Assembly (NCBI GenBank): GCA_018674305.1
Contig: JABHAL010000001.1
Span: 4,635 to 68,634 of the forward strand
Length of the DNA stretch: 64,000 nt
DNA from: Candidatus Falkowbacteria bacterium
Lineage (GTDB): Bacteria > Patescibacteriota > Patescibacteriia > UBA11705 > JABHMO01
Direction: 5' to 3'
Within the stretch, counting starts at the first letter, position 1. Each line of letters starts with the position of its first letter. The notes under the pieces were generated by a model, which saw only the letters and a list, made by a program, of their open reading frames with translations, did no database searches and was not told where the DNA came from. This document shows, piece by piece, positions 11 through 49,100 of the stretch. The translations under genes and the position numbers were made by a program.

Positions 11-769
11 TTACTCGCCTGATTCTTTCTTCATTTTACCTGTAAATCCTTCAAAAGCTCTTAAAATTTCAATTGGCAAAGCAAAGACTACTGTATTTGA
101 CTGATCTGAACTTAAGTCATTGAGTGATTGCAAAGTCCTCAAATGAAGAGCTCCCGTTGAACCAGCTAACATTTTTGCAGCCTGAGCCATATTTGCTGAC
201 GCCTGAACTTCACCTTCGGCCTTGATAATAACTGCTCTTTTTTCTCTTTCCGCTTCAGCTTGCTTGGCAATGGTTCGTTCCATGTTTTCTGGTAAAGACA
301 CATCCTTTAGTTCCACATTTTCAACTTTTACTCCCCATGGATCGGTAGCTTTATCAACAATAACTTTAATTTTCTCAGAAATCTTATCGCGCTGACTCAA
401 TAATTCATCCAACTCAACCTCACCAACAATATTTCTCATCGTTGTTTGAGCTAATTGAGAAACAGCATAATAGAAATTTTCCACTTCCAAAATTGCCTTA
501 CCGGCATCTGTTATTTTGTAATAAATAACGGCATTAACACCAACTGAGATGTTATCCTTGGTAATTGCTTTTTGATCAGGAACGTCAACGGCTTTTGTTC
601 GCATATCCACTTTGGTCATCTGTTGAAAGACTGGCAACACAATTCTCCAGCCAGCATTTTTTACTCCTGTAAATCGTCCCATAGTAAACATCACACCTCT
701 TTGGAATGCATTGATCTGCCGCAAACTAATCACAATAAGAAAAATGATAACTCCAATAATATAATACAT
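11..769 (-). CDS. SPFH/band-7 (stomatin/prohibitin-like) membrane protein
   Basis: N-terminal TM helix, then an SPFH-like core (AVDVPDQKAITKDNISVGVNAVIYYKI...RNIVGEVELDELLSQRDKISEKIK) and a coiled-coil/Ala-rich tail (KQAEAEREKRAVIIKAEGE). Confidence 0.8.
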   Translation of the reverse strand: MYYIIGVIIFLIVISLRQINAFQRGVMFTMGRFTGVKNAGWRIVLPVFQQMTKVDMRTKAVDVPDQKAITKDNISVGVNAVIYYKITDAGKAILEVENFYYAVSQLAQTTMRNIVGEVELDELLSQRDKISEKIKVIVDKATDPWGVKVENVELKDVSLPENMERTIAKQAEAEREKRAVIIKAEGEVQASANMAQAAKMLAGSTGALHLRTLQSLNDLSSDQSNTVVFALPIEILRAFEGFTGKMKKESGE

Positions 770-811: not shown

Positions 812-1882
812 TTAATTATTTATTTCTTCAAGTTGTTTTTTTAAATCTTCTAGCTGTTTTTCCAATTCAGCAGGATCAACACCTTCAATTTGCTTGAGTT
901 GCTCTTCGAAATCAAGTGTAGCACCATCTTCACTGTCCAATCCCATCAAATCCAAATCCATACCGGGCATAAATACTTCTGCCATGTTGAAATCACGGAC
1001 ATTAGCAGGTTCCTTGATTTCAAATTCCTGATCATAATCTGAAAAACTTAATGAGATATCATATTTCATGGAACCACGCTCTTCAGTTTCGGTCAACCAC
1101 CCTAGCTCTGCTTTGTATATTAGATAATCATCCACACCAATCCATAGATTACCAGTTACACTAGATAGAGCCTGAACTGATTCATCTAAATCAGTTTTTT
1201 CCTGAGCTGTTAAATTACGATCCTCCATGATCTCTGTAGCTTTTTGTAAAAACATTTTTAGATCCTTTTGATTCAAATTAGTTTGAAAGTTATATACTTC
1301 CTTGCCATCAAGATCCTTGATACCATTATTGGTAACAACATCAAAAAAATCTGTATTCTTGATCAATTTACGCAATTCTTTATTTTTCTTTTCATCAATC
1401 TTTTTTTGTTTACTTGATAAATCTTGTCCAAAACCAAGAGAACTAAAATCAAACTTGTACCAATTCCCTTTCAACTTAGATAAATCAGCAATTTGCAAAT
1501 TAGGTACCTCTGACAATGAAAAGTATAAAGTTTCCGATAAGTAACGGATTACTCCACTGAAAGATAGTTCTGATTCATCCAACCGATATTTAATATCGCC
1601 CGCCAAATCATAAGCCAAGTCCTTGCGCACATCAATCGGCCCATTAAGTTTAACTATCAACGCGCCCGGCACTAATGCCGCATTTGTAGACCCAAGATTT
1701 TCCAACTGTGGAAACTGGCCATGTACTCCGATACTGATTTCAGTATTATATGATTGCACACCAGACATCGCCAAAACCATTTTTTTCAAAACCTTTTCTG
1801 GACTTGGAGTACAAGCAGTTACACTAACCAAGACGACCACACACATTAAAATCATCCCTCCTATTTTCATTGTTCGCTGCAT
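812..1882 (-). CDS. hypothetical lipoprotein (signal peptide + lipobox VTAC), coiled-coil C-terminus
   Basis: MKIGGMILMCVVVLVSVTAC lipoprotein signal; no recognisable catalytic motifs. Confidence 0.5.
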   Translation of the reverse strand: MQRTMKIGGMILMCVVVLVSVTACTPSPEKVLKKMVLAMSGVQSYNTEISIGVHGQFPQLENLGSTNAALVPGALIVKLNGPIDVRKDLAYDLAGDIKYRLDESELSFSGVIRYLSETLYFSLSEVPNLQIADLSKLKGNWYKFDFSSLGFGQDLSSKQKKIDEKKNKELRKLIKNTDFFDVVTNNGIKDLDGKEVYNFQTNLNQKDLKMFLQKATEIMEDRNLTAQEKTDLDESVQALSSVTGNLWIGVDDYLIYKAELGWLTETEERGSMKYDISLSFSDYDQEFEIKEPANVRDFNMAEVFMPGMDLDLMGLDSEDGATLDFEEQLKQIEGVDPAELEKQLEDLKKQLEEINN

Positions 1883-1960: not shown

Positions 1961-2338
1961 TTAAGAATCTCTAGAAGAATAAGTTGTTTTAATCCATTTA
2001 TTTAACTGGTAATGGACTTGTTGTGCTCTCTCCACAAATAATTTATACTTTTCCTGAGTAATTTTTTCTCTCTTATACATTAGATCACACCAATGTTTTG
2101 ACTCCATTAATGATGCCCTTGCATTATAATAAAATTTAATTCGATCAAGATAGTGAAAACGACCATAACCTTCAACAATATTTGCAGCGTTAGAATCAAC
2201 TGAGCGAATAAATTGATCGCCAAGTATTTTTCTGTCTTGCCAACTTAAAAACTCATACAGCTGCCAACCCAAATCGCACAACTCTAGGGATATTTTATAA
2301 ACAAAAACATCTTCAATTGGAATATACTTACTTTCCAT
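1961..2338 (-). CDS. four-helix-bundle protein (23S rRNA intervening-sequence protein family, PF05635-like)
   Basis: SNAANIVEGYGRF...FYYNARASLMES matches the family signature AANIAEG.GR...A.GS..E. Confidence 0.75.
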   Translation of the reverse strand: MESKYIPIEDVFVYKISLELCDLGWQLYEFLSWQDRKILGDQFIRSVDSNAANIVEGYGRFHYLDRIKFYYNARASLMESKHWCDLMYKREKITQEKYKLFVERAQQVHYQLNKWIKTTYSSRDS

Positions 2339-17922: not shown

Positions 17923-17933
17923 TTATAATAAAA

Positions 17934-17989
17934 AACAGGCTATGAAGGCGAAGATGCGTATCTTTGCCTTCATAGCCTGTTTTATTTTC
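17934..17989. terminator. bidirectional rho-independent terminator between convergent genes
   Basis: 16-bp perfect stem aacaggctatgaaggc/gccttcatagcctgtt followed by a T-run. Confidence 0.75.
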
Positions 17990-17995
17990 AAAAAA

Positions 17996-18319
17996 TTAAA
18001 GCAAAAACAAGAAAACAATCACAGTCAGTATCAATAACCAGCCCAGATTGTAGGCTAACTGCTTTACTGCTTGCGACCAATCCTTCTTTAGCAACAAATA
18101 TACGGGCTTCCCAAACAATAAACTTCCGACAGTCGCTACTGACAGCACAAGCAACAATAAGACTGCAACAAATGTTAAATAGCCACCTTCATTACCATTA
18201 CCAAACAATTCTTCACCTCGGCTCATCAACAAGGAAACTAAACCAACATACGCAACGGTACAGGCTGCATACAAAAACCCCCAGGATAGATCATTGCACT
18301 TACATTTACATTTAAACAT
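17996..18319 (-). CDS. hypothetical small membrane protein
   Basis: three predicted TM helices; CKCKC N-terminus. Confidence 0.4.
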   Translation of the reverse strand: MFKCKCKCNDLSWGFLYAACTVAYVGLVSLLMSRGEELFGNGNEGGYLTFVAVLLLLVLSVATVGSLLFGKPVYLLLKKDWSQAVKQLAYNLGWLLILTVIVFLFLL

Positions 18320-20039: not shown

Positions 20040-20300
20040 ATATTAAAGGAGGGATAAGGAGGCTATAGGAGATAACTATGAATTATTAGATTTTAGTTAT
20101 CCTCTTGCCCCTCTATATCTTCTTTATCTTATAATAATTAAAAAATCTGCGTTAAATTCCGCAGACATATCTAAAAAAGGATATATTCCTCGACAGGTAA
20201 TTAAGCCCCTGATAAAATAAGGACACCCGTTGTCTACGGAGATTAATTTAATTGTTATAGATATTATAAAGTAAATTTTAGATTACGTCAACCCCACTAA
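20040..20300 (-). promoter_or_regulatory. rplJ promoter (TTGACG, 17 nt, TATAAT at ~20265-20293) and ~215-nt leader, putative L10 autoregulatory leader
   Basis: consensus promoter on the gene strand; long structured leader typical of rplJL operons; leader ends in a CU-rich tract instead of an SD. Confidence 0.4.
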
Positions 20301-24200: not shown

Positions 24201-24215
24201 TGGCTACCTCCCCTT

Positions 24216-24407
24216 CTATCCGCAAGGGCTGTCGGTCGTAACATCGACCCTAAAACCCGCTTTTTGAAGTAGCACTAGGAACAACTGACTTCCTTTATGA
24301 CCGTCCTGGGAAAAGTCCTGCAAAACTAGTCGACCGTCGATAAAGTCAATCACAACGTCATAATGACGTCTTACTTTTGGATCAAGTTTTTTGACGTTTT
24401 TTGACAT
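24216..24407 (-). CDS. small protein (63 aa), paralog of 24382..24606
   Basis: MSKNVKKL...LQKAGFRVDVTTD shares the MSK start and AG(K)(M)GFRVD motif with the neighbouring small ORF; SD-like ggaggtag before the next gene. Confidence 0.35.
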   Translation of the reverse strand: MSKNVKKLDPKVRRHYDVVIDFIDGRLVLQDFSQDGHKGSQLFLVLLQKAGFRVDVTTDSPCG

Positions 24408-24606
24408 GGACTTCCTCCACTTGAGCCTCAGGACGACGACTACCCCCTTCTTCCTCAGTATCAACCCTAAATCCCATTTTACCAGCCAACACCTTAAAAA
24501 GGGCCATCTTGGCTTGACAACGTTTTCCTCCGGGATCACCAGGACAATGAACATCCATGATCAACTTACCATCTTCGACTTTAACGTCTACAATGTCCTT
24601 GCTCAT
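24382..24606 (-). CDS. small protein (74 aa)
   Basis: ATGA start/stop overlap with the upstream 171-aa gene (translational coupling); MSKDIVDVKVEDGKLIMDVHCPGDPGGKRC...AGKMGFRVDTEEE. Confidence 0.45.
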   Translation of the reverse strand: MSKDIVDVKVEDGKLIMDVHCPGDPGGKRCQAKMALFKVLAGKMGFRVDTEEEGGSRRPEAQVEEVHVKKRQKT

Positions 24607-25118
24607 GATACGCTCACCCCCTGAAAACTGATCGACTCAATTTTCCCAGTGCTCGAATTTTGTCGCGTTGACAACTCTGAAACCTCATGACCAGTTGCTC
24701 TCATCAAAGCCAACAGAGTTTCACTCAACATCAGGTTGACAAACTCTTGTTCCAGCAAATCCGCAGCCTTAGCTGTTTCACCCTCGGCGCGATAGAATTG
24801 AACCTGACCATTGTAATTATGGACACCCACGGCCAAGCCGTAAGTCAACCCACTTGGCTTAACAACTCCACGAAATTGCGTGTTGTTATAGCTTCTGATT
24901 CTTTCACCACGATCCATCAGAGCAAGCTCAACGGTTGTGTCTACTTCATCTCGATAACGATTCAAGACTCGATCAAGGCATTCCATGATCAAGTCAGCAG
25001 AATCAAAATCTCTGGCAACTACGGCTAACTGCTCATCAAGAGCAGCTAACTCTTCCATGGCTTCTTCCACAACTTGTGGCACGTCAATACAGACACCTGC
25101 AATCAACACTCTACTCAT
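24603..25118 (-). CDS. hypothetical protein, first gene of the GC-elevated cassette
   Basis: strong SD GAAGGAGGT before the ATG; ~48% GC. Confidence 0.45.
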   Translation of the reverse strand: MSRVLIAGVCIDVPQVVEEAMEELAALDEQLAVVARDFDSADLIMECLDRVLNRYRDEVDTTVELALMDRGERIRSYNNTQFRGVVKPSGLTYGLAVGVHNYNGQVQFYRAEGETAKAADLLEQEFVNLMLSETLLALMRATGHEVSELSTRQNSSTGKIESISFQGVSVS

Positions 25119-25247
25119 TGGAACCTCCTTCTCGTTGGGTTACACAAATGTAAAGAACACACTAACTACCTATACTTTTATTATAACTTGTCAAATTTTA
25201 AATAGCTAGCATTTGACTCTATATCTTAAAACTTTTTTTTAGTTAAA

Positions 25248-25292
25248 TCAATAAAAAACTCATGCTATACCATTTAACATGAGTTTTAGTCA
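25248..25292 (-). terminator. rho-independent terminator after pyrH
   Basis: aaactcatg...catgagttt stem then tttttatt on the minus strand. Confidence 0.55.
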
Positions 25293-25307
25293 AATTTACT
25301 TATTTTT

Positions 25308-25994
25308 TTAGGCAATTGTGGTGCCAATAAAATCATTTCCATTTAAAAAAGCCGCAAAGTTTTCTACATTTGTACCATTCATAAAAACAACTTTAAGACC
25401 AATCTCCTCAGCCAACTTGCAGGCCAATGGATCAAGCGGAGTGTTGGCTCCAGGAATCCATTCGTCTCCAACAATGGCCTTTAAATCTGCCCAAGTCATT
25501 TTTTCAATTGGTTTAGCATCATCAAACTTGCGAGGATCTTTGTCGTACACATAATCAACATTAGTTAAAATAACTAAAGTTGAAATCTCTTGTTTTGCTG
25601 CAACCTTTACTGCCACATAGTCAGTAGAGTTACCCGGCTTCCAACCACCACCAACCACAATATTTTCTTTGACTTCAGGTAAACTGGTCGGGTCAGTGAA
25701 AATTGTTTTGCTAGCGGCTTCACCCAAAAGAGTAGCCAGGAAAAATGCATTCAAGTGTGTAACCTTAATTCCCAGCCAATCCAGAGATTCAGAACTGAGC
25801 TTAGTAACCTGCTCAGCCCGACGATTAAATTCACGACATGGCCAACCTCCGCCTACCACAATGTAGAATTTTTTGTCTTTGGCTTGTTCAATTAAAAGAG
25901 TTCTTAACTTCTGAAGAAACTCTGATTGAAAATCTTTAGGCATAACAATTGAACCACCTAAATCAATAACAAATTTTTGCATATAGAAAACCAC
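25308..25994 (-). CDS. pyrH: uridylate kinase (amino-acid-kinase family)
   Basis: IVVGGG and VDYVYDKDPRKFDDAKPIEKMTWADL resemble the PyrH G-loop and VDGVY.ADP region; true start probably MQKF (25982). Confidence 0.7.
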   Translation of the reverse strand: MVFYMQKFVIDLGGSIVMPKDFQSEFLQKLRTLLIEQAKDKKFYIVVGGGWPCREFNRRAEQVTKLSSESLDWLGIKVTHLNAFFLATLLGEAASKTIFTDPTSLPEVKENIVVGGGWKPGNSTDYVAVKVAAKQEISTLVILTNVDYVYDKDPRKFDDAKPIEKMTWADLKAIVGDEWIPGANTPLDPLACKLAEEIGLKVVFMNGTNVENFAAFLNGNDFIGTTIA

Positions 25995-25999
25995 CTTAG

Positions 26000-27280
26000 T
26001 TATTTAAATATTAAAAACTCAGCATATAAAACAATGGTTACAATTATAACAAATGGTACAGTCGCGATTATTCCATATTTTGTAAAATCCCACAAACTAA
26101 TTTTATGTTTCTTCTTTTTAATTAAATGAAACCACATTATCCCAGCCAAAGAACCGAGAATCGTAATATTGGCACCAACATTAGAACCAATAATAATTGC
26201 ATAAGCAATAATATCTTGTTCAACCGACTTTACATTATACAGAATTGAAGAAAGTAAAGCGGTTGACGGAATATTATTAAAAATTCCACAAATTAAAGTT
26301 ACCAGAAACGACACAGCAAGAAAAACATAATAAGAAGCTCCAACTACTACGGAATCCAATCGCTGAATAATGTCATAAAGTAAGCCGGTACTAATGAAAC
26401 CATATAAAAGGATAAACAATCCTGTAACCAAAACAACTACGTTCCAAGGTAAATCTTTCAACAGTTGTTTAATTTTTATTTGTGAAACAAAAATTGCCAA
26501 CAAGGCACATATTGCAGAAACTATCCATAATTCCAATTTTATTAATGGAGCGACCGCAAAAAATAGCATTAGAACTAAAAGCATCACCACAAAAATTCGA
26601 CACTGATATTTGTTTTTTATTATTTTACTAAGATCAGTTTTTTTCTCTTTGTATTTAAGGTTAAATTCTTTATAAAAAACTTTTTTCAAAATAAAATATA
26701 TTGCGATTAAACCTAAAATTGTTGGCAAAAACATGTAAAGCAAATTTTCTAAAAAAGCAATGTCAAAAACCATAGACACGATAAAATTTGTGGGATTGGA
26801 AGTAATCTGTCCAATCGAGGCTGTATTAGCCACAACAAACATGGAAATCAAATATCCCCGAGCTTTTATTTTAGTGTACTTAGTAAAATATAAAATAAAT
26901 GGAGTCAAAGTCAAGATAACAATATCATTTGCAGCAACATAACTAACTACAGCCGACAACACAAAAAGATATTTATACAATTTCAAGCCATCATGCTTAG
27001 CCAATTGAATAGCTTTTATTGATAGATACTCAAAAAAACCAAGTTCATCAAGGCCGGTTGATAAAATAGCAAATGTTATAAAAAATACCAAAACAGCATA
27101 AGGCTTGACTACATCAAATGATATCAAGGCTTGACCTAAATCCGTAAATCTAAGTATCCCAGTAATTAACAAAAATATTATTGCGATAAAAACATAAATA
27201 CTTTCTGGAACATTCAAAGGACGAAAAAAAATTGCCAAAAATGTTACAACGATAACGATTAGAAAAATCCCCTCCAACAT
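26000..27280 (-). CDS. ArsB/NhaD-superfamily anion permease
   Basis: ~12 TM helices with an internal repeat; YbiR/ArsB-like topology. Confidence 0.55.
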   Translation of the reverse strand: MLEGIFLIVIVVTFLAIFFRPLNVPESIYVFIAIIFLLITGILRFTDLGQALISFDVVKPYAVLVFFITFAILSTGLDELGFFEYLSIKAIQLAKHDGLKLYKYLFVLSAVVSYVAANDIVILTLTPFILYFTKYTKIKARGYLISMFVVANTASIGQITSNPTNFIVSMVFDIAFLENLLYMFLPTILGLIAIYFILKKVFYKEFNLKYKEKKTDLSKIIKNKYQCRIFVVMLLVLMLFFAVAPLIKLELWIVSAICALLAIFVSQIKIKQLLKDLPWNVVVLVTGLFILLYGFISTGLLYDIIQRLDSVVVGASYYVFLAVSFLVTLICGIFNNIPSTALLSSILYNVKSVEQDIIAYAIIIGSNVGANITILGSLAGIMWFHLIKKKKHKISLWDFTKYGIIATVPFVIIVTIVLYAEFLIFK

Positions 27281-39714: not shown

Positions 39715-42285
39715 TTACTTGCTACCGTCAAGTTTAACCTTCAACTCCGCAATCTTTTGAAGTGCTTCAAGCGGTGTCATTTTATTAACATCAATTTTAT
39801 CTAAAGCTTTGGTGACTTTTTCTTCTTGTGGACTAATAGATAACGGCAAACTGCTTTGTTCAGCTTTTTTGCTAACTTTAATCTCAGTCTTTTTTTCCAG
39901 ACCATTCAAAATATCAGTTGCCCTGCTAATCATTTCATCAGGCAAACCTGCCAACTTAGCAACTTCAATACCATAACTTTCAGATGTAGCGCCTTTTACA
40001 ATTTTATGTAAGAAAACTACGTTACCCGCTTCTTCACTAACCGCCACACAATAATTTTCTGCGCGTTCTAATTTTTCAATAATATCTGTCAACTCATGGT
40101 AATGTGTAGCAAAAATTGTTTTAGCGCCAAGTTTATCGTGAATGTGTTCAATAATTGCCCAGGCAATACTAACGCCGTCGTAAGTGGAAGTACCACGTCC
40201 GAGTTCATCCAAGATTATTAATGATTTCTTAGTTGCATTATTTAAAATGTTAGCAGCTTCCTGCATTTCTGCCATAAAAGTGGAAACACCTTGAGTAATA
40301 TTATCTGAAGCGCCAACTCGAGTAAAAATTCGATCAACAATACCTAACTGAGCTGAATCAACTGGTACAAAGCTACCAATTTGTGCTAATAAACAAATCA
40401 GAGCCGACTGACGCAAATAACTGGACTTACCACTCATATTCGGACCGGTCAAAAGAAGAAACTCATTTTTTTTGTGGTCCATCTGCAAATCGTTAGGAAC
40501 ATAACGCTCAGTTTGAATTGCCTCAATTACTGAATGCCGACCAGCCTTAATATTAATTTCACCATTGCTGGTTATTTCAGGCTGATTATAATTATTTGAA
40601 TTAGCCAGTAAAGCAAAACCGGTTAACACATCCAACTTAGCAATAATCGAAGCTACACCTAACACATCAGAAAAATATTTAATAATCTTTTCAACAGTTT
40701 CCTGAAAAATCTGCAACTCCATGGTTTTGATTTTATCTTCAGCAGTTAAAATCTTTTCTTCGTATTCTTTTAGTTCAGGTGTAATGAATCGTTCAGCATT
40801 AACTAGAGTTTGCTTACGAGTATAATCTTCTGGAACTTGATTCAAATTGGAATTACTAACTTCAATATAATATCCAAACACTCGATTGAATTTTACTTTT
40901 AAAGATGAAATCTTAGTGCGTTCAACCTGCTTGGCCTGAAACTCTAATAACCAATCTTTACCACCACGTGAAATTTTTCTCAACTCATCCAAATCAGGAC
41001 TATAACCATCTTTGATCATCCCACCTTCAGTAATAAGAGCAGGTGGTTCCTCAATAATTATTTTATCAATAAATTCAACTACTTCTTTTAGCGGATCCAA
41101 GTTTTTATGATATTTTTGTAACAATTCTGCTTTTTTATCTTGCAATAATAGTTTTAATTCAGGAACGATCTGTAAACTTTTTTTCAAAGAAACTAAATCA
41201 CGAGCACTGCCTCGCCCACAACCCAACCGACCAATTAATCTTTCTAAATCCGCGATTTGTTTTAATTTTTCTTGAATACTTTTTATTACAGTTGTCTGTT
41301 CTTTGATTTCGGCCACAGCCTGCAGTCGACGGTTTATTTTATCTTCGTCCAAAAGTGGCAATATCAGCCAGCGCCGTAAACGTCGCCCACCCATACTGGT
41401 TACAGTTTTATCAATAACTGAAAGTAAGCTTCCCTCATATCCAGCGGTGTTGGCAGTTTGAAATAATTCCAAGTTCCGGACGGTCGCTTCGTCCAAAACC
41501 ATATAATTTTGAAAACTAAATCTTTGTATACGGGTAATATGACTTAAATCACTTTTTTGAGTATCTTTTAAATAACCCAGCAACAATCCTGCCGCTTCAA
41601 TACCAATTGGTAATTCTTCAACACCGAAACTTTGTAAATTTTTTACTTTAAACTGTTTAATCAAAAGTGCATATGCCTTTTGAAAAACTGACAATTGAAA
41701 AACATTAACATTGGACAAAGAACTTATAAATTCTTTATACCGAGTATCATTGAATAACTCTTGGTTAATTATTATTTCCGAAAAATCAAACCGGTAAATT
41801 TCATTCTTCAATAAACTTAAATCCAATACTTCTGCCACTCGAAATTCACCTGTAGTCAAATCTGCAATCGCCAAACCCCAAGTATTTTTCTGAAAAGTCA
41901 AAGCGGCAATAAAATTATTACTTTTATTATTTAAAGTTGAGTTAACTAAAGTCGTACCAGGTGTAACGACCTGCACAACTTCCCTCTTTACAATACCCGG
42001 TAAGCTTGCGTCACCAACTTGATCACAAATAGCCACTCGCTGACCAGCTCTTAATAATTTAGCTAAATAATTTTCTAAAGCATGATGAGGAATTCCACAC
42101 ATGGGCATTTCATTTGAAGAACCCTTGTGCCTAGCAGTCAAAACAATATCCAAAATAGCTGAAGCTTTTTTTGCATCCTCTCCAAACAATTCATAAAAAT
42201 CACCTAACCTAAAAAACAACAACTCATTCGGATGCTTTTCTTTTATTTCATTGTATTGCCTTAACATTGGAGTTAATTCGGCCAT
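39715..42285 (-). CDS. mutS: DNA mismatch repair protein MutS
   Basis: GPNMSGKSSYLRQ Walker A, DELGRGTSTYDG, N-terminal mismatch-binding domain. Confidence 0.95.
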   Translation of the reverse strand: MAELTPMLRQYNEIKEKHPNELLFFRLGDFYELFGEDAKKASAILDIVLTARHKGSSNEMPMCGIPHHALENYLAKLLRAGQRVAICDQVGDASLPGIVKREVVQVVTPGTTLVNSTLNNKSNNFIAALTFQKNTWGLAIADLTTGEFRVAEVLDLSLLKNEIYRFDFSEIIINQELFNDTRYKEFISSLSNVNVFQLSVFQKAYALLIKQFKVKNLQSFGVEELPIGIEAAGLLLGYLKDTQKSDLSHITRIQRFSFQNYMVLDEATVRNLELFQTANTAGYEGSLLSVIDKTVTSMGGRRLRRWLILPLLDEDKINRRLQAVAEIKEQTTVIKSIQEKLKQIADLERLIGRLGCGRGSARDLVSLKKSLQIVPELKLLLQDKKAELLQKYHKNLDPLKEVVEFIDKIIIEEPPALITEGGMIKDGYSPDLDELRKISRGGKDWLLEFQAKQVERTKISSLKVKFNRVFGYYIEVSNSNLNQVPEDYTRKQTLVNAERFITPELKEYEEKILTAEDKIKTMELQIFQETVEKIIKYFSDVLGVASIIAKLDVLTGFALLANSNNYNQPEITSNGEINIKAGRHSVIEAIQTERYVPNDLQMDHKKNEFLLLTGPNMSGKSSYLRQSALICLLAQIGSFVPVDSAQLGIVDRIFTRVGASDNITQGVSTFMAEMQEAANILNNATKKSLIILDELGRGTSTYDGVSIAWAIIEHIHDKLGAKTIFATHYHELTDIIEKLERAENYCVAVSEEAGNVVFLHKIVKGATSESYGIEVAKLAGLPDEMISRATDILNGLEKKTEIKVSKKAEQSSLPLSISPQEEKVTKALDKIDVNKMTPLEALQKIAELKVKLDGSK

Positions 42286-42448
42286 GAGCGACTAGAAGGA
42301 AGAAGAAGGGATAAGAAGATAACAAAAATGCTAACATTATCTTTTTTCGCCTTATTTCGACCAATTCATCATTTTGTAATATTTTAACAAAGAATCACTA
42401 TTATCGCAAATAAAAATACACTGATAAAAGCAGTGTATTTTAAAGTAT

Positions 42449-42844
42449 TTAAGCTTGTTCTTTTTTTCCTTGGTCTTCCGTAGCTTCAAGCGAAGGAAGG
42501 TCTTCCTCAACAGGAGTTTCTTCAAGTGGGATAGCTTCAATCTGCTCTTCCTTTAACTCTTCAGCCCATTCTTCTTGTTTATCTTCATCCTTAGAAACCG
42601 CAGGTTCTTCAACTTTCTCTGCAGGGGCACTCTCTGCTACTGCTGATGTTGGAATAGTTGGTGCAGTTGGTCTAGCAGTCTCTTTACCACTATCAAGATC
42701 CTTGACTGATTCTTCCCCAATCTTATCTTCACATTTATTACAATAATCTGGATTTTTTGCAGATTTTTTTACTCCAGCAAGACCTGAAATCTTTGCCCAA
42801 AATCCTTCAATTGGAGCACTACAGGCTTTACATTTTTTAGACAT
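42449..42844 (-). CDS. zinc-ribbon protein with acidic disordered tail
   Basis: CKAC...CNKC N-terminal ribbon, Glu/Pro-rich C-terminus. Confidence 0.4.
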   Translation of the reverse strand: MSKKCKACSAPIEGFWAKISGLAGVKKSAKNPDYCNKCEDKIGEESVKDLDSGKETARPTAPTIPTSAVAESAPAEKVEEPAVSKDEDKQEEWAEELKEEQIEAIPLEETPVEEDLPSLEATEDQGKKEQA

Positions 42845-42958
42845 AAACTCTTTTTTATTAGTAATTTAACTACAAATTGAATGTAGCATGAAATAAATGA
42901 TTATTCAAGTAAAAACCACCCTTTTTCAAGAGCGGTTTTTACTATTAAACTTTATAAA

Positions 42959-45900
42959 TTATTTGATCTGCACACTATCAGCCTTGGAATAATTAATTAT
43001 TGATGGACTATTACTAGATTGAATAGTTACCGGCTCAGCTCGGTATTCACCAAGAGCAGCTACTCGAGCATAGTACTTAAAGTAGTTTAGACCTTTACAC
43101 GGTTGCCAATTCTTATTCATACCAAACTTTATCTTCTGATCATTAATTTCGTAAGGATAACGTAGACCACACCAACTCCTAATACCAATTGAGTAAGGTC
43201 TAGTTACGCCTTTCAAACCACTTGGTAAAATATCGGTTATTTGATAATAACCATCGACCGAATCAACAGAAATCTGAGGATATAAACGAACCTCAATTAT
43301 ATCTCCAGCTGAAAAATGATTAACCTGCTGACCATCCACATAATATTGACGGTCAACTGACACATACTGACTAAATGCCTGATCAGTTACTTTTTCTTGA
43401 TAAATACTGGTTACGCCAATATCACCTTGTACGTCCTCAATTTTTAGCCTAGCCAACTGTTCAGGTAATAAGTCTAGCTTGAAGTTTTGACCATTTTCTA
43501 ATTCTTTTTTGTATTTTTTCCCATCAACGTTAACAGTGAAACTAACTGGCCCAACATTCAAGGTTGGCAGACGCTTTGTCAAATAATTAACTTCTTCTAA
43601 ATTGATCAAGACATCTTTAGTCCGGTGATCTGCCAGATAAGACCAAAGCCCTTTATGATATGGGTCATTCAGACCAGCTGCCAACACAGCAGCTAAACTT
43701 GTTGCCTGCAAAACATCATCTTGATCTTTGCCAGTTTTAATTCGGACATAAGAATCTAATTCTTCAGCATTTTCTTTCATTACCTCTAGATAAAGTTTAC
43801 GACCAAGTTCACGATCACCGATCTCAAATGCTGCCAATGCAATATATAATTTTTCTTTAACAGTAACATCTTCAAGTGTCGCAATATTTTGAATTGGCAA
43901 AAGCACAGGCTCTCCCAATCCAGCTAATCCGTAAAGGGAAATAATTACTTCCTCCTGACTAGACTCTTCTGAATTTAGTTTTGTGTAAAAATACTTTGAC
44001 AAAGAAACTTTATCAAATTCAGCCCCTGCAATTGAAGCAACTTTGGCACTCAATTCAAAGTCACTTGAACTATAAGGCAATAAAGTCAAACCACCTTTAC
44101 TCTCCTGATAAGTAGCTGAATTAAAGTTATCTACTTTGTATTCCTTACTGAAATACTGCTTAAATAACTTTTGAGCGGCAACTTTGGAAACTCTCTGGTC
44201 CAACCGATCTCCGTACTGCCAACTTAATCGAAGTAGTCGATGATAAAGCTGTCCAATACTCTCGTCCATAAAAACTAGAGTTGTTCTGTCCGTTGCCGAA
44301 CCAGAAATTTCCACGCCTGACTCATACTTATAATAATCCTGCACTTCTTTGGTCAACAAACTTTCAGCCACAGCAAATTTATTTATCAAGGTATCTTCAA
44401 GTTCACCCTTTTTGGCAGTTGAACTAATTTCATACTGTCCAACGCCAACTTCCCCTAGCGCTACGCTTAAAGCATCAAAAGCTTCCGTTTGTTTAACTAT
44501 TTTATTCAAGTCTAATGCTTCAGAACTAATTTCATAATCAATCACATCACCTGAAGTTAAAGTTTCACCATATGTTCGTAACTGCATAACAGGAGAATCC
44601 CCTTCCAAAAACTTATCTGGTAAAGTTGAGTTTATAAACAAAGGAAGACTAACCGGCAAGGCTGTTACCTCTCTACCAGCGTAAATATCCTTATTAATTG
44701 CCTGCGTAGTAATTCGCCATGAGGTTATATTATCAGGTAATTCAAATCTAACAGTTGCGCGACCAAATAAATCAGTCTTGGCCATTTTGAATAAAGCAGT
44801 ATCCTGAAAGTCTTCTCGCGCTCCACCTTTGTCATTGTGAACAAAGAAACCTTCTGCGAAATATGTGTGATATTTTTCAATATGTAAATTATAAACATCA
44901 ACCATTTGACCGAATCTCTCAATGCTCTCAATTTTAACTCTTTGACCAAATTCATCTAATAAATAATCACCTACTTTAGACTGACCAATCATCTGCCAAC
45001 CATTATTAACAAATACTCTATGCTCAGGAGTAACCCGCAACTTCCCATTAATTAGGTAATAGCCATAAACTGTATGCTCAAAAGTGTTTAACACTTTAGC
45101 TCTAACTAATTTCTTCGATAGCGGATCACTAAAAGTTAAGATCTCATCACCAATCTGAATTTCTTCAATATTCTTGTATGAGCCGTCAGCCATCTTGATC
45201 TGGGTACCAGCCACAAAACAACCGCCCATACCACTCGCATCAGGCGCCAAAGACAATGCTTCATGGGAAGCATAAGTCGTTTTTAGTCCAGCACTTTCCA
45301 ACTGATATACACTGGCCAAAATATCTGCCCAATCTTCGCTCAGCTGAAAAAAGGCTTCATCAACCAAACTTAAATTCAAAGTTGCTGCAACCGGATTTCC
45401 TTTTTGATTAGTAACTTTAACTTCTAATTCCACATCCTCACCTGGTGCATACTCCTCCTTATTTGAAGTAACTTCAACATTTAATTCTTTTTCTGAATAA
45501 TCATATCTGATTGATGTTCCACTGCTAGAACTATACCAATTGTTACTTCCGCTCTGATGATATTTCTCACCATCAAACCAAACTCCACTAACATAAATAT
45601 TTGGAATATAGCTATCCTTGAAGTTAAATTCGTAAACTGGTTCAGTTGACAATGAATAGTCAACTAGACCACGTCGCATCTTGTAGTACAAATAATCTTT
45701 CTTTTCCTGAGAAGATAAAATATCATTATTTTTTGTGAATTCCAAAATCACACTCTCGTCTACCTTAAACTTAACTTTATCACCCTTAATTGCCAACTTA
45801 TAATATTCGTAATTATTGGAACTATATGGATTGCCATAATATGAAGAGCCATACATTTGAGTGGATAAATAATTATTCCCTTGCTCATCAATGGCAATCA

Positions 45901-48505
45901 AGCGAATTTGGTAATAACTCTTTTCTTCAGTTTCAAATTCATAAGTAAACTCACCTGCGGCATCAGTTAAACCTGACATCTCATGAATAACTTTTTCTTC
46001 TTTTTCGTACTTGTATTTTTTATTAACGACCTTATTAATATAATCATACTCTTCACCAATTTCATTCTTGTGCCAAATTATTTGGATAATTTTACCTTTA
46101 ATAGCTGTATTTGGCGCCACTTCTTCCTCATCAACAACACTCCAAAGACTCCCTTTGGCCCTTTTCTCTAAATCGTATTTTTTCACTGTGGCCTTTATTT
46201 TTGCTGTTAATGAATTCTTTTCTTTTGGCGCAACTTCCATCTTGGTATAAACACGAGAGTTATAAGTATAGACATAAGCTGTTTGATTAATCTGTGCCAC
46301 TTCCGGTTGCGTTGAATTCAAATTTAAGTATACTGTTTGCATGTTGGAACAATATGTTTTTTCTAAAGTACACTTAGTCGCGACTGATGGCACCTCGATA
46401 CGCGCCTCACCAGCTAAGTCAACCTCGACTTCTCCTTTCACAGACTTATTACTGGAACTATAATCTAAAACTAAATCTGACACGGGAGTACCTTCAAAAA
46501 ATTCCGCATTAACATCAAAAACTGCAGTTTCTCCGGACCAAATCACTTTATTCTCTGGCTCAACCTTGATTTGATATGCTGGTTTATCGTAAGTCTGAAT
46601 ATTAATGTACTTAGTAGACAAAATCTCATCACCAAGTCTAACGTCCACATAATAATAACCCGGGACTAACTTTTCAAGCTTCAACTCACCAGAATAAACA
46701 AAATCAGGAGACACTTCAAGTTCTTGTTCTGCCAAACTTATTTCTTCATTATAATAATTATAATAACGAGCATAACTATTTTGCCGCAAAGCAACTGTAA
46801 CTTTTTCATCAATCCCCTTTGAATCCTTGGGTTTTACAAATCCCCAAAATTTAATAGTATCGTCAGGTTGAAATAAATTTCGATCAGTGTAAAAATATTT
46901 CCAATACTCTTTTTGCTCTTGTTTAGAAAAACTAACAGGAACAATAGTTACATCACCATCTTTTCGAACCCTCAAGTAGTCAGTCTCATATCGATCTTCC
47001 TCGCTAAAAACAAAAGCTGTGTCGGTATTAAATTTAGTAATTCCTTGACCGTCAGTACTTTTAGTAATTCCACTGGAAATTATTTTAACCTCAGCATTTT
47101 GAACTGACCCTTTATCCACAATACTATTAACCCAAACTAGGCTTTCACTGGTAGACACCATAGAAAATACTGCTAATTCACTAACTGAGAAAAAAGTCTG
47201 TCTTTTCACGTCCTGAACAGTTGATTCAATGACATAAAACCCCGGTTCATATACTTCTGGAAAAACTATAAACTTATTGTAATTAACTTCTCGAACTTCC
47301 AATTCATAGTCAGTTATATGACTAAGGGTATTAGTGTCAACCAAAGAAGACTCGCGATTATAGCTTGCCCAAGCAGGATAATCATATCTACTTTTCAGCG
47401 CCTCTAAATAAGCTGTATCATTGGCCAAGGAATAAACATTTAACTTAATTTTACTATCAAGTAAATTTCGTTCGTAAACTTTGAAGGCTGGCTCTCTAGT
47501 TGGAGAAAATTCTAGATAATCACCGATAATCATGAAGTAAGGTTTATTATTTGAACCTCGCTTATAATTTACCAATGGACTGGTCTCAAATTGCAGGGTG
47601 TAATCTTTTACCATTTTTTCATCTGACTCCGACAAAGGTAACTCCTTGTCTACAATTATTCTGTAAATAGTACCAGGCATTAAATTCTTGGGTACAAAAA
47701 CCCAAGTTCTTTTATGCTTTTCGAAACTTCCATCAACCTTTGGTTCAATTGTAAAATGTTTAGCAAACTCTTCCACATTGTCATGACTGAAAGTAAATTC
47801 AATTCCTGTATCAAGTGGTACCCCAGAACTTTTATCACGAGGCAAAGAGCCGATAATTTTGAATTGGTCTTTAGTTTGAAACGCCCAAGAATAATCTTGT
47901 TCAAATGTTAAACCGCTTTCTGCCATAATAGAGGCCGAAATTACAACACTATAAACAACTCGTGGTTGCAATGGTTCACTTGGAATAATCTTAAACTCAT
48001 GATCATTTACTTTTTTAAAACTAAACTCTAATTCAGGTTTGATCTGAATATTCTCTTCCAATAATTCTGAATCTACGACTTCTTTACTTTTAATAACAAA
48101 AGCAGTGTCCGACTCAACGCCAATACTATCACTAACTGTCGCCTCAACTGTAAAATTATCCTGCGCGTATGCTGGACTAATTATAAGTCGAGAAAATTCA
48201 CTGAAAGGTGAATCTTGGCCAGGCCAGTAATGACTAGCTGTTACAAGTAAAGCAAAAATCACCAGAACAGCTAGAACTGGAGATAAGCGCCTGACAGTAA
48301 AAAGTGAAGAAAATCCTTTTACAAAATTTAGCATATGTTTTTTTTGCTGCCGTTTTTCTAGGATCTTCGATTTTAATGCATAACGAAAATCATCAGAAGC
48401 AGGCTCATTTTTAAATTGTGCTTTTTTTAGCATACTCTCTGCTTCCTGTAACGGATGATTTTCACTTTTATTACGTTTTTTATTGTTATTGTTGTAATTT
48501 TGCAT
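42959..48505 (-). CDS. giant (1848 aa) surface protein: anti-sigma-like cytoplasmic N-terminus, TM, MG/Ig-like repeats, embedded Hint domain, alpha-2-macroglobulin-like TED region (no CGEQ)
   Basis: start 3 nt after the ECF sigma stop; TM LSPVLAVLVIFALLVTA at ~aa 75-95; LSLVDEAFFQL and ITSWRITTQAIN resemble A2M-family motifs; C...HN Hint domain. Confidence 0.6.
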   Translation of the reverse strand: MQNYNNNNKKRNKSENHPLQEAESMLKKAQFKNEPASDDFRYALKSKILEKRQQKKHMLNFVKGFSSLFTVRRLSPVLAVLVIFALLVTASHYWPGQDSPFSEFSRLIISPAYAQDNFTVEATVSDSIGVESDTAFVIKSKEVVDSELLEENIQIKPELEFSFKKVNDHEFKIIPSEPLQPRVVYSVVISASIMAESGLTFEQDYSWAFQTKDQFKIIGSLPRDKSSGVPLDTGIEFTFSHDNVEEFAKHFTIEPKVDGSFEKHKRTWVFVPKNLMPGTIYRIIVDKELPLSESDEKMVKDYTLQFETSPLVNYKRGSNNKPYFMIIGDYLEFSPTREPAFKVYERNLLDSKIKLNVYSLANDTAYLEALKSRYDYPAWASYNRESSLVDTNTLSHITDYELEVREVNYNKFIVFPEVYEPGFYVIESTVQDVKRQTFFSVSELAVFSMVSTSESLVWVNSIVDKGSVQNAEVKIISSGITKSTDGQGITKFNTDTAFVFSEEDRYETDYLRVRKDGDVTIVPVSFSKQEQKEYWKYFYTDRNLFQPDDTIKFWGFVKPKDSKGIDEKVTVALRQNSYARYYNYYNEEISLAEQELEVSPDFVYSGELKLEKLVPGYYYVDVRLGDEILSTKYINIQTYDKPAYQIKVEPENKVIWSGETAVFDVNAEFFEGTPVSDLVLDYSSSNKSVKGEVEVDLAGEARIEVPSVATKCTLEKTYCSNMQTVYLNLNSTQPEVAQINQTAYVYTYNSRVYTKMEVAPKEKNSLTAKIKATVKKYDLEKRAKGSLWSVVDEEEVAPNTAIKGKIIQIIWHKNEIGEEYDYINKVVNKKYKYEKEEKVIHEMSGLTDAAGEFTYEFETEEKSYYQIRLIAIDEQGNNYLSTQMYGSSYYGNPYSSNNYEYYKLAIKGDKVKFKVDESVILEFTKNNDILSSQEKKDYLYYKMRRGLVDYSLSTEPVYEFNFKDSYIPNIYVSGVWFDGEKYHQSGSNNWYSSSSGTSIRYDYSEKELNVEVTSNKEEYAPGEDVELEVKVTNQKGNPVAATLNLSLVDEAFFQLSEDWADILASVYQLESAGLKTTYASHEALSLAPDASGMGGCFVAGTQIKMADGSYKNIEEIQIGDEILTFSDPLSKKLVRAKVLNTFEHTVYGYYLINGKLRVTPEHRVFVNNGWQMIGQSKVGDYLLDEFGQRVKIESIERFGQMVDVYNLHIEKYHTYFAEGFFVHNDKGGAREDFQDTALFKMAKTDLFGRATVRFELPDNITSWRITTQAINKDIYAGREVTALPVSLPLFINSTLPDKFLEGDSPVMQLRTYGETLTSGDVIDYEISSEALDLNKIVKQTEAFDALSVALGEVGVGQYEISSTAKKGELEDTLINKFAVAESLLTKEVQDYYKYESGVEISGSATDRTTLVFMDESIGQLYHRLLRLSWQYGDRLDQRVSKVAAQKLFKQYFSKEYKVDNFNSATYQESKGGLTLLPYSSSDFELSAKVASIAGAEFDKVSLSKYFYTKLNSEESSQEEVIISLYGLAGLGEPVLLPIQNIATLEDVTVKEKLYIALAAFEIGDRELGRKLYLEVMKENAEELDSYVRIKTGKDQDDVLQATSLAAVLAAGLNDPYHKGLWSYLADHRTKDVLINLEEVNYLTKRLPTLNVGPVSFTVNVDGKKYKKELENGQNFKLDLLPEQLARLKIEDVQGDIGVTSIYQEKVTDQAFSQYVSVDRQYYVDGQQVNHFSAGDIIEVRLYPQISVDSVDGYYQITDILPSGLKGVTRPYSIGIRSWCGLRYPYEINDQKIKFGMNKNWQPCKGLNYFKYYARVAALGEYRAEPVTIQSSNSPSIINYSKADSVQIK
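44834..45220 (-). other. Hint / bacterial intein-like (BIL) domain, 129 aa, embedded in the giant protein
   Basis: GMGG|CFVAGTQIKMADG...HIEKYHTYFAEGFFVHN|DKGG: N-terminal Cys, block-A-like start, C-terminal His-Asn; the +1 residue is Asp, so a BIL-type cleavage module rather than a splicing intein; coordinates +/-1 nt. Confidence 0.6.
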
Positions 48506-48508
48506 AAA

Positions 48509-49042
48509 TTATTTATGTAAACTTTTGAATTTATTTAAGGCTCGATAAAGTAAAACTCCCACATTATTTGCTGAAATATGCATCGTTTCGGCAATCTCCT
48601 GATTGGACAATTCAGCGAAATACTTCAAATTTACCACCTGTTGATAACGGCCGGACATTTTCTGAATAATCTGCATAACCTTTTTCTTATCTTCTAAACT
48701 CATTAAATATTCTTCTGTAGTTTGTTTAATTTCCGCTGGTTCAGTTATGTCTTCAATATCCACCTTTGTATTTTTTAATTCTTTGCGATAATAATCAATT
48801 AAATTATTAGTGGCAATTTTATAAACCCAGGACTTAAATGATCCTTTACGTGGATTAAAATTCTTTAAACCACAAAAAACCTTGGTAAAGGTTTCTGAAA
48901 CAATATCCTCAGCAATTTCACGTTTACCACAACGCTTAAATACATAGCCGTAAATTTTATCAAAATAAAAATCATACAAGACACCAAAAGCCTGGTGATC
49001 ATGTACTGCATCTTTGACCAGTTGTTTTTCATTTTCCAACAT
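48509..49042 (-). CDS. ECF-type RNA polymerase sigma factor (sigma-70 regions 2 and 4)
   Basis: YDFYFDKIYGYVFKRCGKREIAEDIVSETFTKVF (region 2) and LSNQEIAETMHISANNVGVLLYRAL (region 4 HTH). Confidence 0.8.
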   Translation of the reverse strand: MLENEKQLVKDAVHDHQAFGVLYDFYFDKIYGYVFKRCGKREIAEDIVSETFTKVFCGLKNFNPRKGSFKSWVYKIATNNLIDYYRKELKNTKVDIEDITEPAEIKQTTEEYLMSLEDKKKVMQIIQKMSGRYQQVVNLKYFAELSNQEIAETMHISANNVGVLLYRALNKFKSLHK

Positions 49043-49100
49043 TAATCTAATTATAGCACAAAAAAAGACGCTCTTGAATCAAGAACGTCTTGTGTTTAAC

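Follow-up and report, generated by a model that had tools for sequence, protein, structure and literature searches.

We analyzed a two-gene unit in a stretch of 64,000 nucleotides from Candidatus Falkowbacteria bacterium (assembly GCA_018674305.1, contig JABHAL010000001.1, positions 4,635 to 68,634), hereafter called the window. In this unit, a predicted extracytoplasmic function (ECF) sigma factor gene is translationally coupled to the gene of a giant single-pass membrane protein of 1848 amino acids (aa). The ectodomain of the giant protein, about 1750 aa long, belongs to the alpha-2-macroglobulin (A2M) superfamily, and its bait region is interrupted by a Hint domain, the fold used by inteins. 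The reading that we favour, with modest confidence, is that the two proteins form a sigma/anti-sigma pair in which a type-II-like macroglobulin, its bait processing itself, is the sensor; the Hint domain would cleave the chain and the cytoplasmic tail of the giant protein would bind the sigma factor. What is observed is the architecture of the protein, the site of the Hint insertion, that the catalytic residues are conserved, and that tail and sigma gene occur together. Coordinates of all features are given in Table 1.

A membrane-anchored macroglobulin without a thioester

The first 73 residues of the giant protein are hydrophilic and rich in lysine and asparagine, and its sole strong hydrophobic segment begins at aa 74. 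An earlier inspection of the letters and open reading frames (ORFs) of the window, hereafter the sequence-only reading, had described a lysine-rich cytoplasmic N-terminus followed by a single transmembrane helix, and the hydropathy profile agrees with this description. It had also quoted two A2M-like motifs, which fall within the Pfam domains A2M_BRD (aa 905-1055) and A2M (aa 1237-1305). The matches to A2M_BRD, A2M and PT-HINT are above the Pfam threshold, and those to bMG3 and MG2 are below the gathering score. Over the bMG3/MG2 stretch, the family profile aligns to the macroglobulin (MG) domains of ECAM, TEP1, C3 and C4. The profile also matches ECAM, C5, CD109, TEP1 and A2M, and over the C-terminal MG domain it aligns to that of ECAM with an E value of 4e-18.

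An AlphaFold2 model of aa 850-1848 was built from a 44-sequence family alignment and reached a mean predicted local distance difference test (pLDDT) of 84.3 and a predicted template modelling score (pTM) of 0.62. In the model, beta-sandwich domains are seen together with a Hint domain (model residues 247-375) that is compact and rich in beta strands, and about 12 helices form a block that precedes the C-terminal beta domain. When it was compared with the Protein Data Bank (PDB) by Foldseek, the top matches were ECAM 5a42 (E 1.8e-32), Salmonella A2M 4u48 (5.7e-32) and ECAM 4ziq (7.5e-32). Human A2ML1, CD109 and A2M, complement proteins and TEP1 were also matched, and the probability was 1.00 for bacterial and eukaryotic A2Ms. 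The helical block (aa 1417-1648) resembles a thioester-containing domain (TED). The CxEQ thioester motif was found in none of 121 sequences (the giant protein and 120 homologs), and the TED-like block holds no cysteine in the giant protein, nor in 92 of the 121 family members. The ectodomain is an A2M-superfamily protein with a TED-like domain and without a thioester, as the sequence-only reading had proposed from the letters.

Type I A2Ms carry the CxEQ thioester, which is lacking here; the type II combination, a bait region kept without a thioester, is what we found. The giant protein resembles the type II A2Ms MagD of Pseudomonas aeruginosa and YfaS of Escherichia coli in its multiple MG domains, bait region, TED-like domain and C-terminal MG domain, in the absence of CxEQ, and in its association with the cytoplasmic membrane. 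It has its own N-terminal transmembrane anchor, however, whereas type II A2Ms are periplasmic and held in the Mag complex. The six-gene mag/yfa operon context was not found around the giant gene; the only recurring partners across the fetched loci are instead an ECF sigma gene upstream, present at roughly one locus in two, and, downstream, a Memo-like gene. The Hint domain in the bait loop and the occurrence in CPR (Candidate Phyla Radiation) and Gram-positive-type lineages also set the family apart from type II A2Ms. Type I A2Ms (ECAM/YfhM and Salmonella A2M) provide the best structural matches (E about 1e-32), and their bait-region and C-terminal MG domains align in sequence with those of the giant protein. 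In contrast to them, the giant protein has no thioester, no lipoprotein anchor and no pbpC neighbour, and its bait holds a predicted autoprocessing domain where type I A2Ms have a protease-sensitive peptide.

The model, which represents a truncated construct, superposes better on activated than on native structures of the A2M family. The template modelling scores (TMq) were 0.47 (4ziq), 0.43 (4rtd), 0.39 (6tav), 0.39 (9fx3) and 0.37 (7q62) for structures activated by protease or methylamine, and 0.29 (5a42), 0.24 (4u48), 0.27 (7q1y) and 0.27 (8s3o) for native ones. This predicted closeness to the activated forms of ECAM, human A2M, A2ML1 and CD109 comes from a truncated construct and is suggestive only.

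A Hint domain with a complete catalytic set

Between A2M_BRD and A2M lies a Hint domain (aa 1096-1224) that the sequence-only reading had overlooked. It starts with CFVAGTQI, with Cys1096 as residue 1, carries TPEH as block B and ends in GFFVHN (His1223-Asn1224), followed by Asp at position +1. The PT-HINT match scores 46 bits against a cutoff of 27.7, and the Pfam models Intein_splicing, Vint and Hint match as well. Among solved structures, Hint domains of the bacterial intein-like (BIL) type come closest, namely 6Y75/6TMM (E 2.5e-10) and 2LWY of Clostridium (4.6e-10), and canonical RecA mini-inteins match at about 1e-5.

Conservation was evaluated in 56 Hint-bearing protein clusters and at 79 Hint junctions scored from fetched genomic loci. 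The domain measures 129 aa and occupies the same site in the 56 clusters; across the 79 junctions it measures 128-131 aa, with 129 aa in 68 of them. Cys1 is present in 55/56 clusters and 79/79 loci and the terminal His-Asn pair in 56/56 and 79/79, and the block-B Thr and His are each conserved to at least 98%. In the homolog P0050, Cys1 is the sole cysteine among 1864 aa. The linker on the N side ends in a conserved G-A-E-G-G-G (DASGMGG in the giant protein), so that Gly stands at position -1 in 53 of 56 clusters and 78 of 79 loci, and Lys is found at position +2 in 55 of the clusters and 63 of the loci. A nucleophile (Cys, Ser or Thr) at position +1 occurs in no cluster (0/56) and, as Ser, in 2/79 loci; the residue is otherwise D, E, Q, A, N, G or I. 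Mean pairwise identity is 51% for the Hint domain versus 38% for the rest of the ectodomain, and the Hint domain co-diverges with its host protein (r = 0.78).

Judging from these residues, all that catalysis of an N-to-S acyl shift at Gly1095-Cys1096 and of Asn1224 cyclisation requires is present in the Hint domain, and we infer that it is active. Since the catalytic residues are invariant, inactivity is unlikely. Because there is no nucleophile at position +1, the chemistry would mostly sever the chain.

The Hint fold, Cys1, T-x-x-H and His-Asn are those of a canonical class 1 intein, but the +1 nucleophile of such inteins is missing. The domain further resembles class 1 mini-inteins in its 129 aa, blocks A, B, F and G, conserved site, intein-free alleles and absence of an endonuclease. 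It differs from them in that Asp, Glu, Gln or Ala at position +1 makes transesterification impossible, and in that the host is exported and not a cytoplasmic replication or repair enzyme. With A-type BIL and PT-HINT domains it shares the Hint fold, Cys1, T-x-x-H, terminal His-Asn, the lack of a +1 nucleophile and a secreted or surface host, the domain being extracytoplasmic. BIL domains have no +1 nucleophile and yield mainly cleavage products, and single mutations can turn them into splicing domains (PMC7664689). Unlike PT-HINT domains, the Hint domain of the giant protein is not placed upstream of a toxin, as A2M, TED-like and MG domains come after it, and it is not part of a ubiquitin-like polyprotein. 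It sits in a loop inside a folded host of several domains, at the one position for which the mechanistic meaning of proteolysis is known.

A search with the Hint domain alone among 1.84 billion cluster representatives returned 2,760 proteins at E <=1e-10. The macroglobulins among them carry a single Hint domain, with 47-65% identity, and many of the top-ranking proteins are secreted and carry 2-10 tandem Hint domains of the same subtype (CF.AGT ... VHN-xK). These tandem-Hint proteins (P0174-P0307, e.g., P0176, P0179, P0181, P0185 and P0194) range from 266 to 4119 aa; signal peptides, PKD domains or an N_methyl motif of the pilin kind occur in them, and in P0176 the matched stretches number 10. 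Their appearance is that of self-processing polyproteins, for which a processing role would be the simplest reading.

The Hint domain is inserted in the bait loop

At the exact position of the Hint domain, Hint-less relatives have a contiguous conserved motif, GAE-x-GG-(G/E/D)...R-x-DF-x-D, which the family profile aligns to ECAM GRLAALRFGGDGDELKRGG (AALRFGGDGD). In the same alignment, the methionine of the E-x-M-Y motif falls on ECAM chain position 1595, which is Met1634 in the numbering of Fyfe et al., an offset of 39. This offset converts chain R884/L903 to Arg923/Leu942 and chain R917 to Arg956, in agreement with the residues named by Fyfe et al. The predicted insertion point is about ECAM Gly949/Asp950, inside the bait region and between the Arg923-Leu942 segment and Arg956. 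In ECAM, the bait segment Arg923-Leu942 is missing after elastase cleavage, and Arg956 belongs to the freed bait, whose binding to the C-terminal MG domain drives activation (Fyfe et al., PMC4498604). From the profile alignment and the Met1634 numbering, the Hint site is therefore placed directly upstream of the activation-triggering segment of ECAM. The pLDDT is below 50 in the 18 residues before Cys1 and in the 12 residues after Asn1224, and the Hint domain thus hangs in a disordered loop in the model.

The bait loop of Hint-less relatives is not hypervariable: SH....GAE-x-GG-(G/E/D), followed by R-x-DF-x-D, is conserved from CPR bacteria to Clostridia. Such conservation of the bait suggests that it is processed by, or interacts with, one dedicated enzyme or partner, and not that it senses proteases broadly.

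The sequence-only reading had proposed that a macroglobulin-type protease trap couples envelope protease attack to a transcriptional response. Spelled out, the bait would be cut by an external protease, and closure of the macroglobulin would then free the sigma factor; the Hint domain would be incidental or inactive. This external trigger needs revision, as the bait loop is occupied by the Hint domain. The disordered linkers on both sides of the domain (about 18 and 12 residues) could still be cut, sigma-linked relatives without a Hint domain exist, and the thioester-less MagD traps protease after bait cleavage (PMC5764988). Against such a trigger stand the invariant catalytic residues, which make an inactive Hint domain improbable, and the bait flanks, which are conserved and not hypervariable as in broad-spectrum traps; moreover, if the Hint domain cleaves itself, the bait would already be cut before any protease arrives. 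We regard this model as rather unlikely. It was assessed separately from the other alternatives discussed below; the alternatives are not mutually exclusive and bear on different parts of the model.

The Hint domain is gained and lost among close relatives

A scan of one genome per species returned at least 593 relatives of the giant protein. The family occurs in hundreds of CPR species, and more than 130 of its sequences were examined. The best 80 of these at least 593 loci are essentially all from Patescibacteria/CPR, including Parcu-, Uhr-, Magasanik-, Falkow-, Peregrini-, Gracili-, Collier-, Doudna- and Saccharibacteria-like groups, and all 80 carry the Hint domain. Hint-less relatives were found in CPR bacteria, Clostridia, Dehalococcoidia and others. 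In the phylogenetic tree, built without the Hint columns, the Hint-bearing proteins do not make up one monophyletic group but fall into pure clades with 32, 6, 6, 4 and 3 members, plus singletons. P0038, which carries the Hint domain, and P0056, which lacks it, are 83.5% identical over 1663 residues, with GGG in the latter in place of A-Hint-IK. The pair P0058/P0080 (66% identical) shows the same clean presence/absence pattern. A single ancient insertion of the Hint domain is ruled out by the tree and by these close pairs. On the evidence of tree and alignments, the domain is gained or lost cleanly and repeatedly, in an intein-like manner, and since it is polymorphic among close relatives, the host protein evidently works either way.

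Such a pattern raises the possibility that the Hint domain is a selfish mini-intein-like element, which excises itself and re-ligates the GAEGGG-DKGG loop through the aminolysis of A-type BIL domains, leaving a conventional protease-triggered trap. The patchy distribution, with Hint-bearing proteins in at least five clades, and the clean presence/absence at both levels of identity fit this explanation. So do the conserved insertion site in the host, typical of inteins, the intact splicing-type blocks, and the loop left after excision, which would resemble the Gly-rich loop of Hint-less relatives. However, the +1 nucleophile is absent in 56/56 clusters and 77/79 loci, and BIL domains mainly cleave; there is no homing endonuclease, and the host protein is extracytoplasmic, unlike usual intein hosts. 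The tandem arrays of the same subtype in secreted proteins are hard to square with parasitism, and the Hint domain is under stronger constraint than its host. A selfish element is a possibility that we take seriously but do not expect to be right.

When the Hint domain and the cytoplasmic tail were scored together, 36 proteins had both, 18 had the Hint domain without the tail, 14 had the tail without the Hint domain and 47 had neither. The Hint domain and the sigma-linked tail are independent modules.

A Memo-family gene (PF01875) is located directly downstream from the A2M-like gene, overlapping it or a few nucleotides away (L001-L084), in 4/4 Hint-less loci and 52/80 Hint-bearing loci. At its N-terminus the Memo-like protein carries a signal or an anchor of lipoprotein-like type, and in some cases it is fused to PGA_cap. 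This gene is a conserved partner of the A2M-like family. In the syntenic relative L017, it lies between the A2M-like gene and mutS, and it is absent at the same place in the window (42286-42958). A Memo pseudogene was sought by tblastn with the L017 Memo protein, and nothing was found in 42201-43100 or elsewhere in the window. Replacement of Memo by the Hint domain was ruled out, since the same 52 Hint-bearing loci also carry the Memo-like gene. No relevant link of Memo to a bacterial macroglobulin operon was found in open-access PubMed Central/bioRxiv full texts.

The cytoplasmic tail accompanies the sigma gene

The association between sigma gene and tail was analyzed in 65 complete CPR loci with enough upstream sequence. 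An ECF sigma gene is located directly upstream on the same strand in 36 of them, with gaps mostly between -14 and +17 nt. All 36 sigma-linked proteins have a tail of 36-120 aa (median 65), whereas the median tail in the 29 loci without a sigma gene is 15 aa. A hidden Markov model of the window-type tail matches 13 loci, each of them sigma-linked (13/13). At least about 10 changes of the sigma state were counted on the ectodomain tree, and the tail matches this state at 61/65 loci; the closest pair in opposite states (distance 0.33) differs in sigma gene and tail together. Three Hint-less tail-bearing relatives were examined, and in each (3/3) a sigma gene overlaps from upstream, whereas none lies upstream in a relative from Clostridia whose N-terminus is short. 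Because 36/36 sigma-linked loci carry the tail and the state changes about 10 times on the tree, the coupling of the A2M-like gene to a sigma gene is not an accident of a single genome. Second sigma genes in L022, L032 and L066 are followed by small multi-transmembrane proteins and were uninformative on the tail.

Within the tail, the motif L.EAE..lKKA.F...PAS.DF...LK.KILE.R is conserved in 24 aligned homologs. The zinc motif HxxxCxxC was not found in the tail; aa 1-73 contain no Cys, and a single CND occurs in some relatives. A search with the tail profile among 5.8 billion proteins returned nothing at E <=1e-3, the profile being too short for a database of this size. As in single-pass anti-sigma factors, the protein has a single transmembrane segment with the N-terminus inside, and its gene adjoins a sigma gene. 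From its topology and its linkage, the tail is probably an anti-sigma element. The sequence-only reading had placed an anti-sigma module there; topology, sigma linkage and co-occurrence of the tail are those expected of such a module, and similarity to Pfam or PDB anti-sigma domains did not appear. It had named two absences that would speak against it, of which one, that of anti-sigma similarity, was indeed found, and the other was not, as MG and TED domains are present.

The sigma factor itself matches Sigma70_r2 (aa 23-88, E 3.6e-16) and Sigma70_r4_2 (aa 121-171, E 2.1e-13) in Pfam and sigma70-ECF in NCBIfam (110 bits, cutoff 42.9). It consists of sigma2 and sigma4 only and is within the expected ECF size of about 170-200 aa. 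No NCBIfam equivalog cutoff was passed, the best being that of the BldN family (135 versus 206). Its TAA stop codon is followed by TTT and by the ATG of the giant gene, the 3-nt gap that the sequence-only reading had noted, and both ORFs are in the same frame. The NCBI protein HN858_05755 is 100% identical to the giant protein, is annotated as hypothetical and has its start placed at Met25. Residues located 5' of Met25 are conserved among homologs, e.g., KRNKSENHPLQEAESMLKKAQF versus KRNKKDDSSLLEAEQLIKKAQF in P0003; because this conservation reaches upstream of Met25, the longer ORF and the 3-nt gap are probably correct.

The presence of an intrinsic terminator upstream and of TGcTATAAT before the sigma ATG indicates that the sigma/giant pair is a transcription unit of its own. 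With the -10-like element 7 nt from the ATG, the mRNA may be leaderless or near-leaderless. The syntenic relative L017 has the same layout, a terminator and then TGnTATAAT before the sigma ATG. Among the 14 relatives with the closest sigma factors, 11 (L002, L004, L007, L012, L013, L043, L051, L063, L070, L073 and L074) have a motif that resembles an ECF-type promoter (TGTAAY-N15-18-CGTWW) just upstream of the sigma ATG, against a background of 0.014 per kb, and two further relatives have one-mismatch variants. Its common form is TGTAAT-N16-17-CGTTA, and it ends about 5-10 nt before the sigma start codon. In these relatives, the motif suggests autoregulation and near-leaderless mRNAs. Autoregulation is typical of sigma/anti-sigma operons.

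A scan of the whole window for this motif gave 2 matches versus 0.91 expected, which is not significant. One of them (1901-1927, minus strand) is located 18 nt upstream of a 356-aa ORF (812..1882) without a Pfam match, which is followed by a Band_7/SPFH gene (11..769), in a region with repeated GTAATATT units.

A self-processing bait as a possible route to sigma release

In the model that we favour, the two-gene operon encodes an ECF sigma factor and its membrane-bound partner, whose two-helix cytoplasmic tail would hold the sigma factor. After export, the Hint domain would process the protein at one or both junctions, by the acyl shift at its N-terminal junction and by cyclisation of its terminal Asn. 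The product would be mostly two-chain, with some re-ligated product possible as in A-type BIL domains. Since a cut in the ECAM bait frees the downstream segment and triggers the conformational change, Hint autocleavage could arm the macroglobulin by itself, so that the protein would be pre-armed or switched without a foreign protease. In sigma-linked members, the membrane stub would become accessible to regulated proteolysis once the processed ectodomain is lost, moves or is degraded, and this proteolysis would in turn release the sigma factor.

In complement C3, C4 and C5, maturation includes a cut in the bait-equivalent loop that leaves two chains, and this loop hosts an inserted anaphylatoxin domain; this cleavage is made by a host furin-type protease and not by an inserted autoprocessing domain. 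RsgI of C. thermocellum and FecR/FoxR resemble the giant protein as single-pass proteins with the N-terminus inside, encoded beside an ECF sigma gene. FecR and FoxR self-cleave, and RsgI signalling requires autoproteolysis (PMC10328401); the cleavage occurs by an acyl-shift or Asn-based mechanism and is a prerequisite for regulated intramembrane proteolysis. The Hint domain of the giant protein, however, is about 1000 residues away from the membrane and optional in the family, whereas the cleavage module of RsgI and FecR is juxtamembrane, and the cytoplasmic part of the giant protein is not a recognisable anti-sigma domain, unlike that of RsgI, FecR and FoxR.

Several observations weigh against our model. 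Four representative tails had no match among Pfam anti-sigma domains at E up to 10, and with the same E limit the 24-tail profile did not match any anti-sigma chain of the PDB. An AlphaFold2 model of a fusion (sigma + F + tail 1-62), in which only the sigma part had alignment depth, reached a pLDDT of 89.9 and a pTM of 0.45 and gave no confident complex; two helices are predicted in the tail (pLDDT 75-87). The region upstream of the window sigma gene (49043-49100) is without the ECF-type promoter of the relatives, and L017 is likewise without it. As for the Hint domain, all four combinations of Hint domain and tail exist, and it is therefore not obligatory for signalling; its polymorphism between close relatives fits a selfish element as well. 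A-type BIL domains can also re-ligate their flanks, and the mature protein might by analogy be single-chain.

The points on the tail and on the promoter would agree with a sigma factor that merely controls the macroglobulin gene or is co-transcribed with it, the tail having another role such as localisation or binding of another partner. This alternative can draw on the missing similarity to anti-sigma domains, the unconfident sigma-tail fusion model, the housekeeping-type promoter of the window sigma gene, and the length of the tail, which falls well short of the roughly 80-90 aa of classical anti-sigma domains and goes down to 36 aa in certain clades. But the tail always comes with the sigma gene and is mostly absent otherwise, through about 10 independent state changes, and its sequence classes track the similarity classes of the sigma factors. 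The N-in single-pass topology, with a gene coupled to or overlapping the sigma gene, is moreover the standard anti-sigma arrangement. We hold a role of the tail other than anti-sigma to be doubtful, with some chance of being correct.

One further reading assigns the Hint domain the part of a reactive warhead or switch, the Gly1095~Cys1096 thioester in the bait loop functionally replacing the lost thioester of the TED. A nucleophile on a protease or on a host-cell surface would resolve this thioester in the manner of Hedgehog, the membrane-anchored N-terminal fragment would be coupled covalently to the target, and the C-terminal 620-aa fragment would be released. In sigma-linked members, this redox- or nucleophile-dependent chemistry would be the signal that frees the sigma factor. 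The substitution of one thioester for the other was examined across the family and showed no correlation, as Hint-less relatives are also without CxEQ. We consider the warhead improbable.

Genomic environment of the two-gene unit

The features of the unit are listed in Table 1. Its upstream neighbours are the alanyl-tRNA synthetase gene and a 486-aa ORF without assignment, and a 131-aa CxxC ORF and the genes for MutS and MutL are located downstream. Conserved neighbours of the window genes were sought in the family loci, and none was found except in the syntenic locus L017.

Table 1. Position of the sigma factor/macroglobulin unit and its parts in the window (aa numbers refer to the giant protein)
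Feature	Coordinates	Strand	Basis
ECF (group 4) sigma-70 family sigma factor, 177 aa	48509..49042	-	Pfam and NCBIfam
A2M-like giant single-pass membrane protein, 1848 aa	42959..48505	-	ORF, Pfam, AlphaFold2, Foldseek
Intrinsic terminator of the upstream gene; the two-gene unit begins here	49065..49091	-	12-bp stem and T-run
Extended -10-like element TGcTATAAT, 7 nt 5' of the sigma ATG	49050..49058	-	sequence reading
Cytoplasmic N-terminal tail, aa 1-73, putative sigma-binding module	48287..48505	-	conservation, co-occurrence
Single transmembrane helix, aa ~74-93	48227..48286	-	hydropathy maximum 2.18 over 19 residues from aa 74
N-terminal Ig-like/MG array: Big_5 125-211, bMG3 441-525, MG2 537-577	46775..48133	-	Pfam
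A2M bait-region domain, aa 905-1055	45341..45793	-	Pfam A2M_BRD E 4.9e-10; profile aligns to ECAM
Disordered N-side bait linker, aa 1078-1095	45221..45274	-	AlphaFold2 pLDDT <50, model residues 229-246
Hint domain, BIL/PT-HINT type, 129 aa, aa 1096-1224	44834..45220	-	Pfam PT-HINT E 7.5e-12
Disordered C-side bait linker, aa 1225-1236, DKGGAREDFQDT	44798..44833	-	pLDDT <50, model residues 376-387
A2M domain, aa 1237-1305, contains LPDNITSWR	44591..44797	-	Pfam A2M E 1.9e-9
TED-like helical domain, aa 1417-1648	43562..44257	-	AlphaFold2 helices, model residues 568-799
C-terminal MG (receptor-binding-like) domain, aa ~1654-1848	42962..43546	-	profile and model residues 805-998

The 131-aa ORF (42449-42844, minus strand), between the giant gene and mutS, has an N-terminal zinc-ribbon-like CxxC...CxxC and an acidic Pro/Glu-rich tail, with no Pfam match and no homolog in the family loci. 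Elsewhere in the window, the ORFs of at least 100 aa that do not overlap a larger ORF are almost all on the minus strand, chiefly except for a 733-aa ORF on the plus strand (15721-17922), and the GC skew is negative over the entire window. This plus-strand ORF lies in a low-GC stretch with strongly positive AT skew (16001-18000, GC 0.33, AT skew +0.21); a higher-GC stretch is found at 22001-26000 (0.41-0.44). The only Rfam match in the window is a ribosomal protein L10 leader (RF00557, 55 bits) at 20131-20257 on the minus strand, and ARAGORN detected no tRNA genes in the 64 kb. A 125-aa ORF (1961-2338, minus strand) matches the 23S rRNA-intervening-sequence protein family (PF05635, E 6.5e-19), and there is no rRNA gene in the window.

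Implications

The kinds of components in this unit, an ECF sigma factor, a bacterial macroglobulin and a BIL-type Hint domain, are all known; their combination was found in no paper searched. No description of a bacterial macroglobulin with a Hint domain was found in open-access PubMed Central/bioRxiv full texts, where anti-sigma, macroglobulin and ECF appeared together only in an unrelated review on antimicrobial peptides.

Activation of ECAM has been proposed to result from untethering of the segment just downstream of the cut, which drives the conformational change (PMC4498604). A bait loop that cuts itself, if true, would be a natural experiment on this mechanism. With the matched alleles that have or lack the Hint domain, at 84% identity, one can test directly if the intein-like element of an exported protein has been domesticated or is selfish. 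The short Hint domain, with Gly at position -1 and no requirement at position +1, could also serve as a self-cleaving tag, and the Memo-like partner is a further lead on the role of surface macroglobulins.

For signalling, the tail is a candidate minimal anti-sigma module of 36-90 aa without known homology, attached to a sensor of about 190 kDa. The organisms that carry this system have very small genomes and live attached to other cells. If the improbable warhead reading were true, an intein-like domain would be the sensor of transmembrane signalling in CPR episymbionts.

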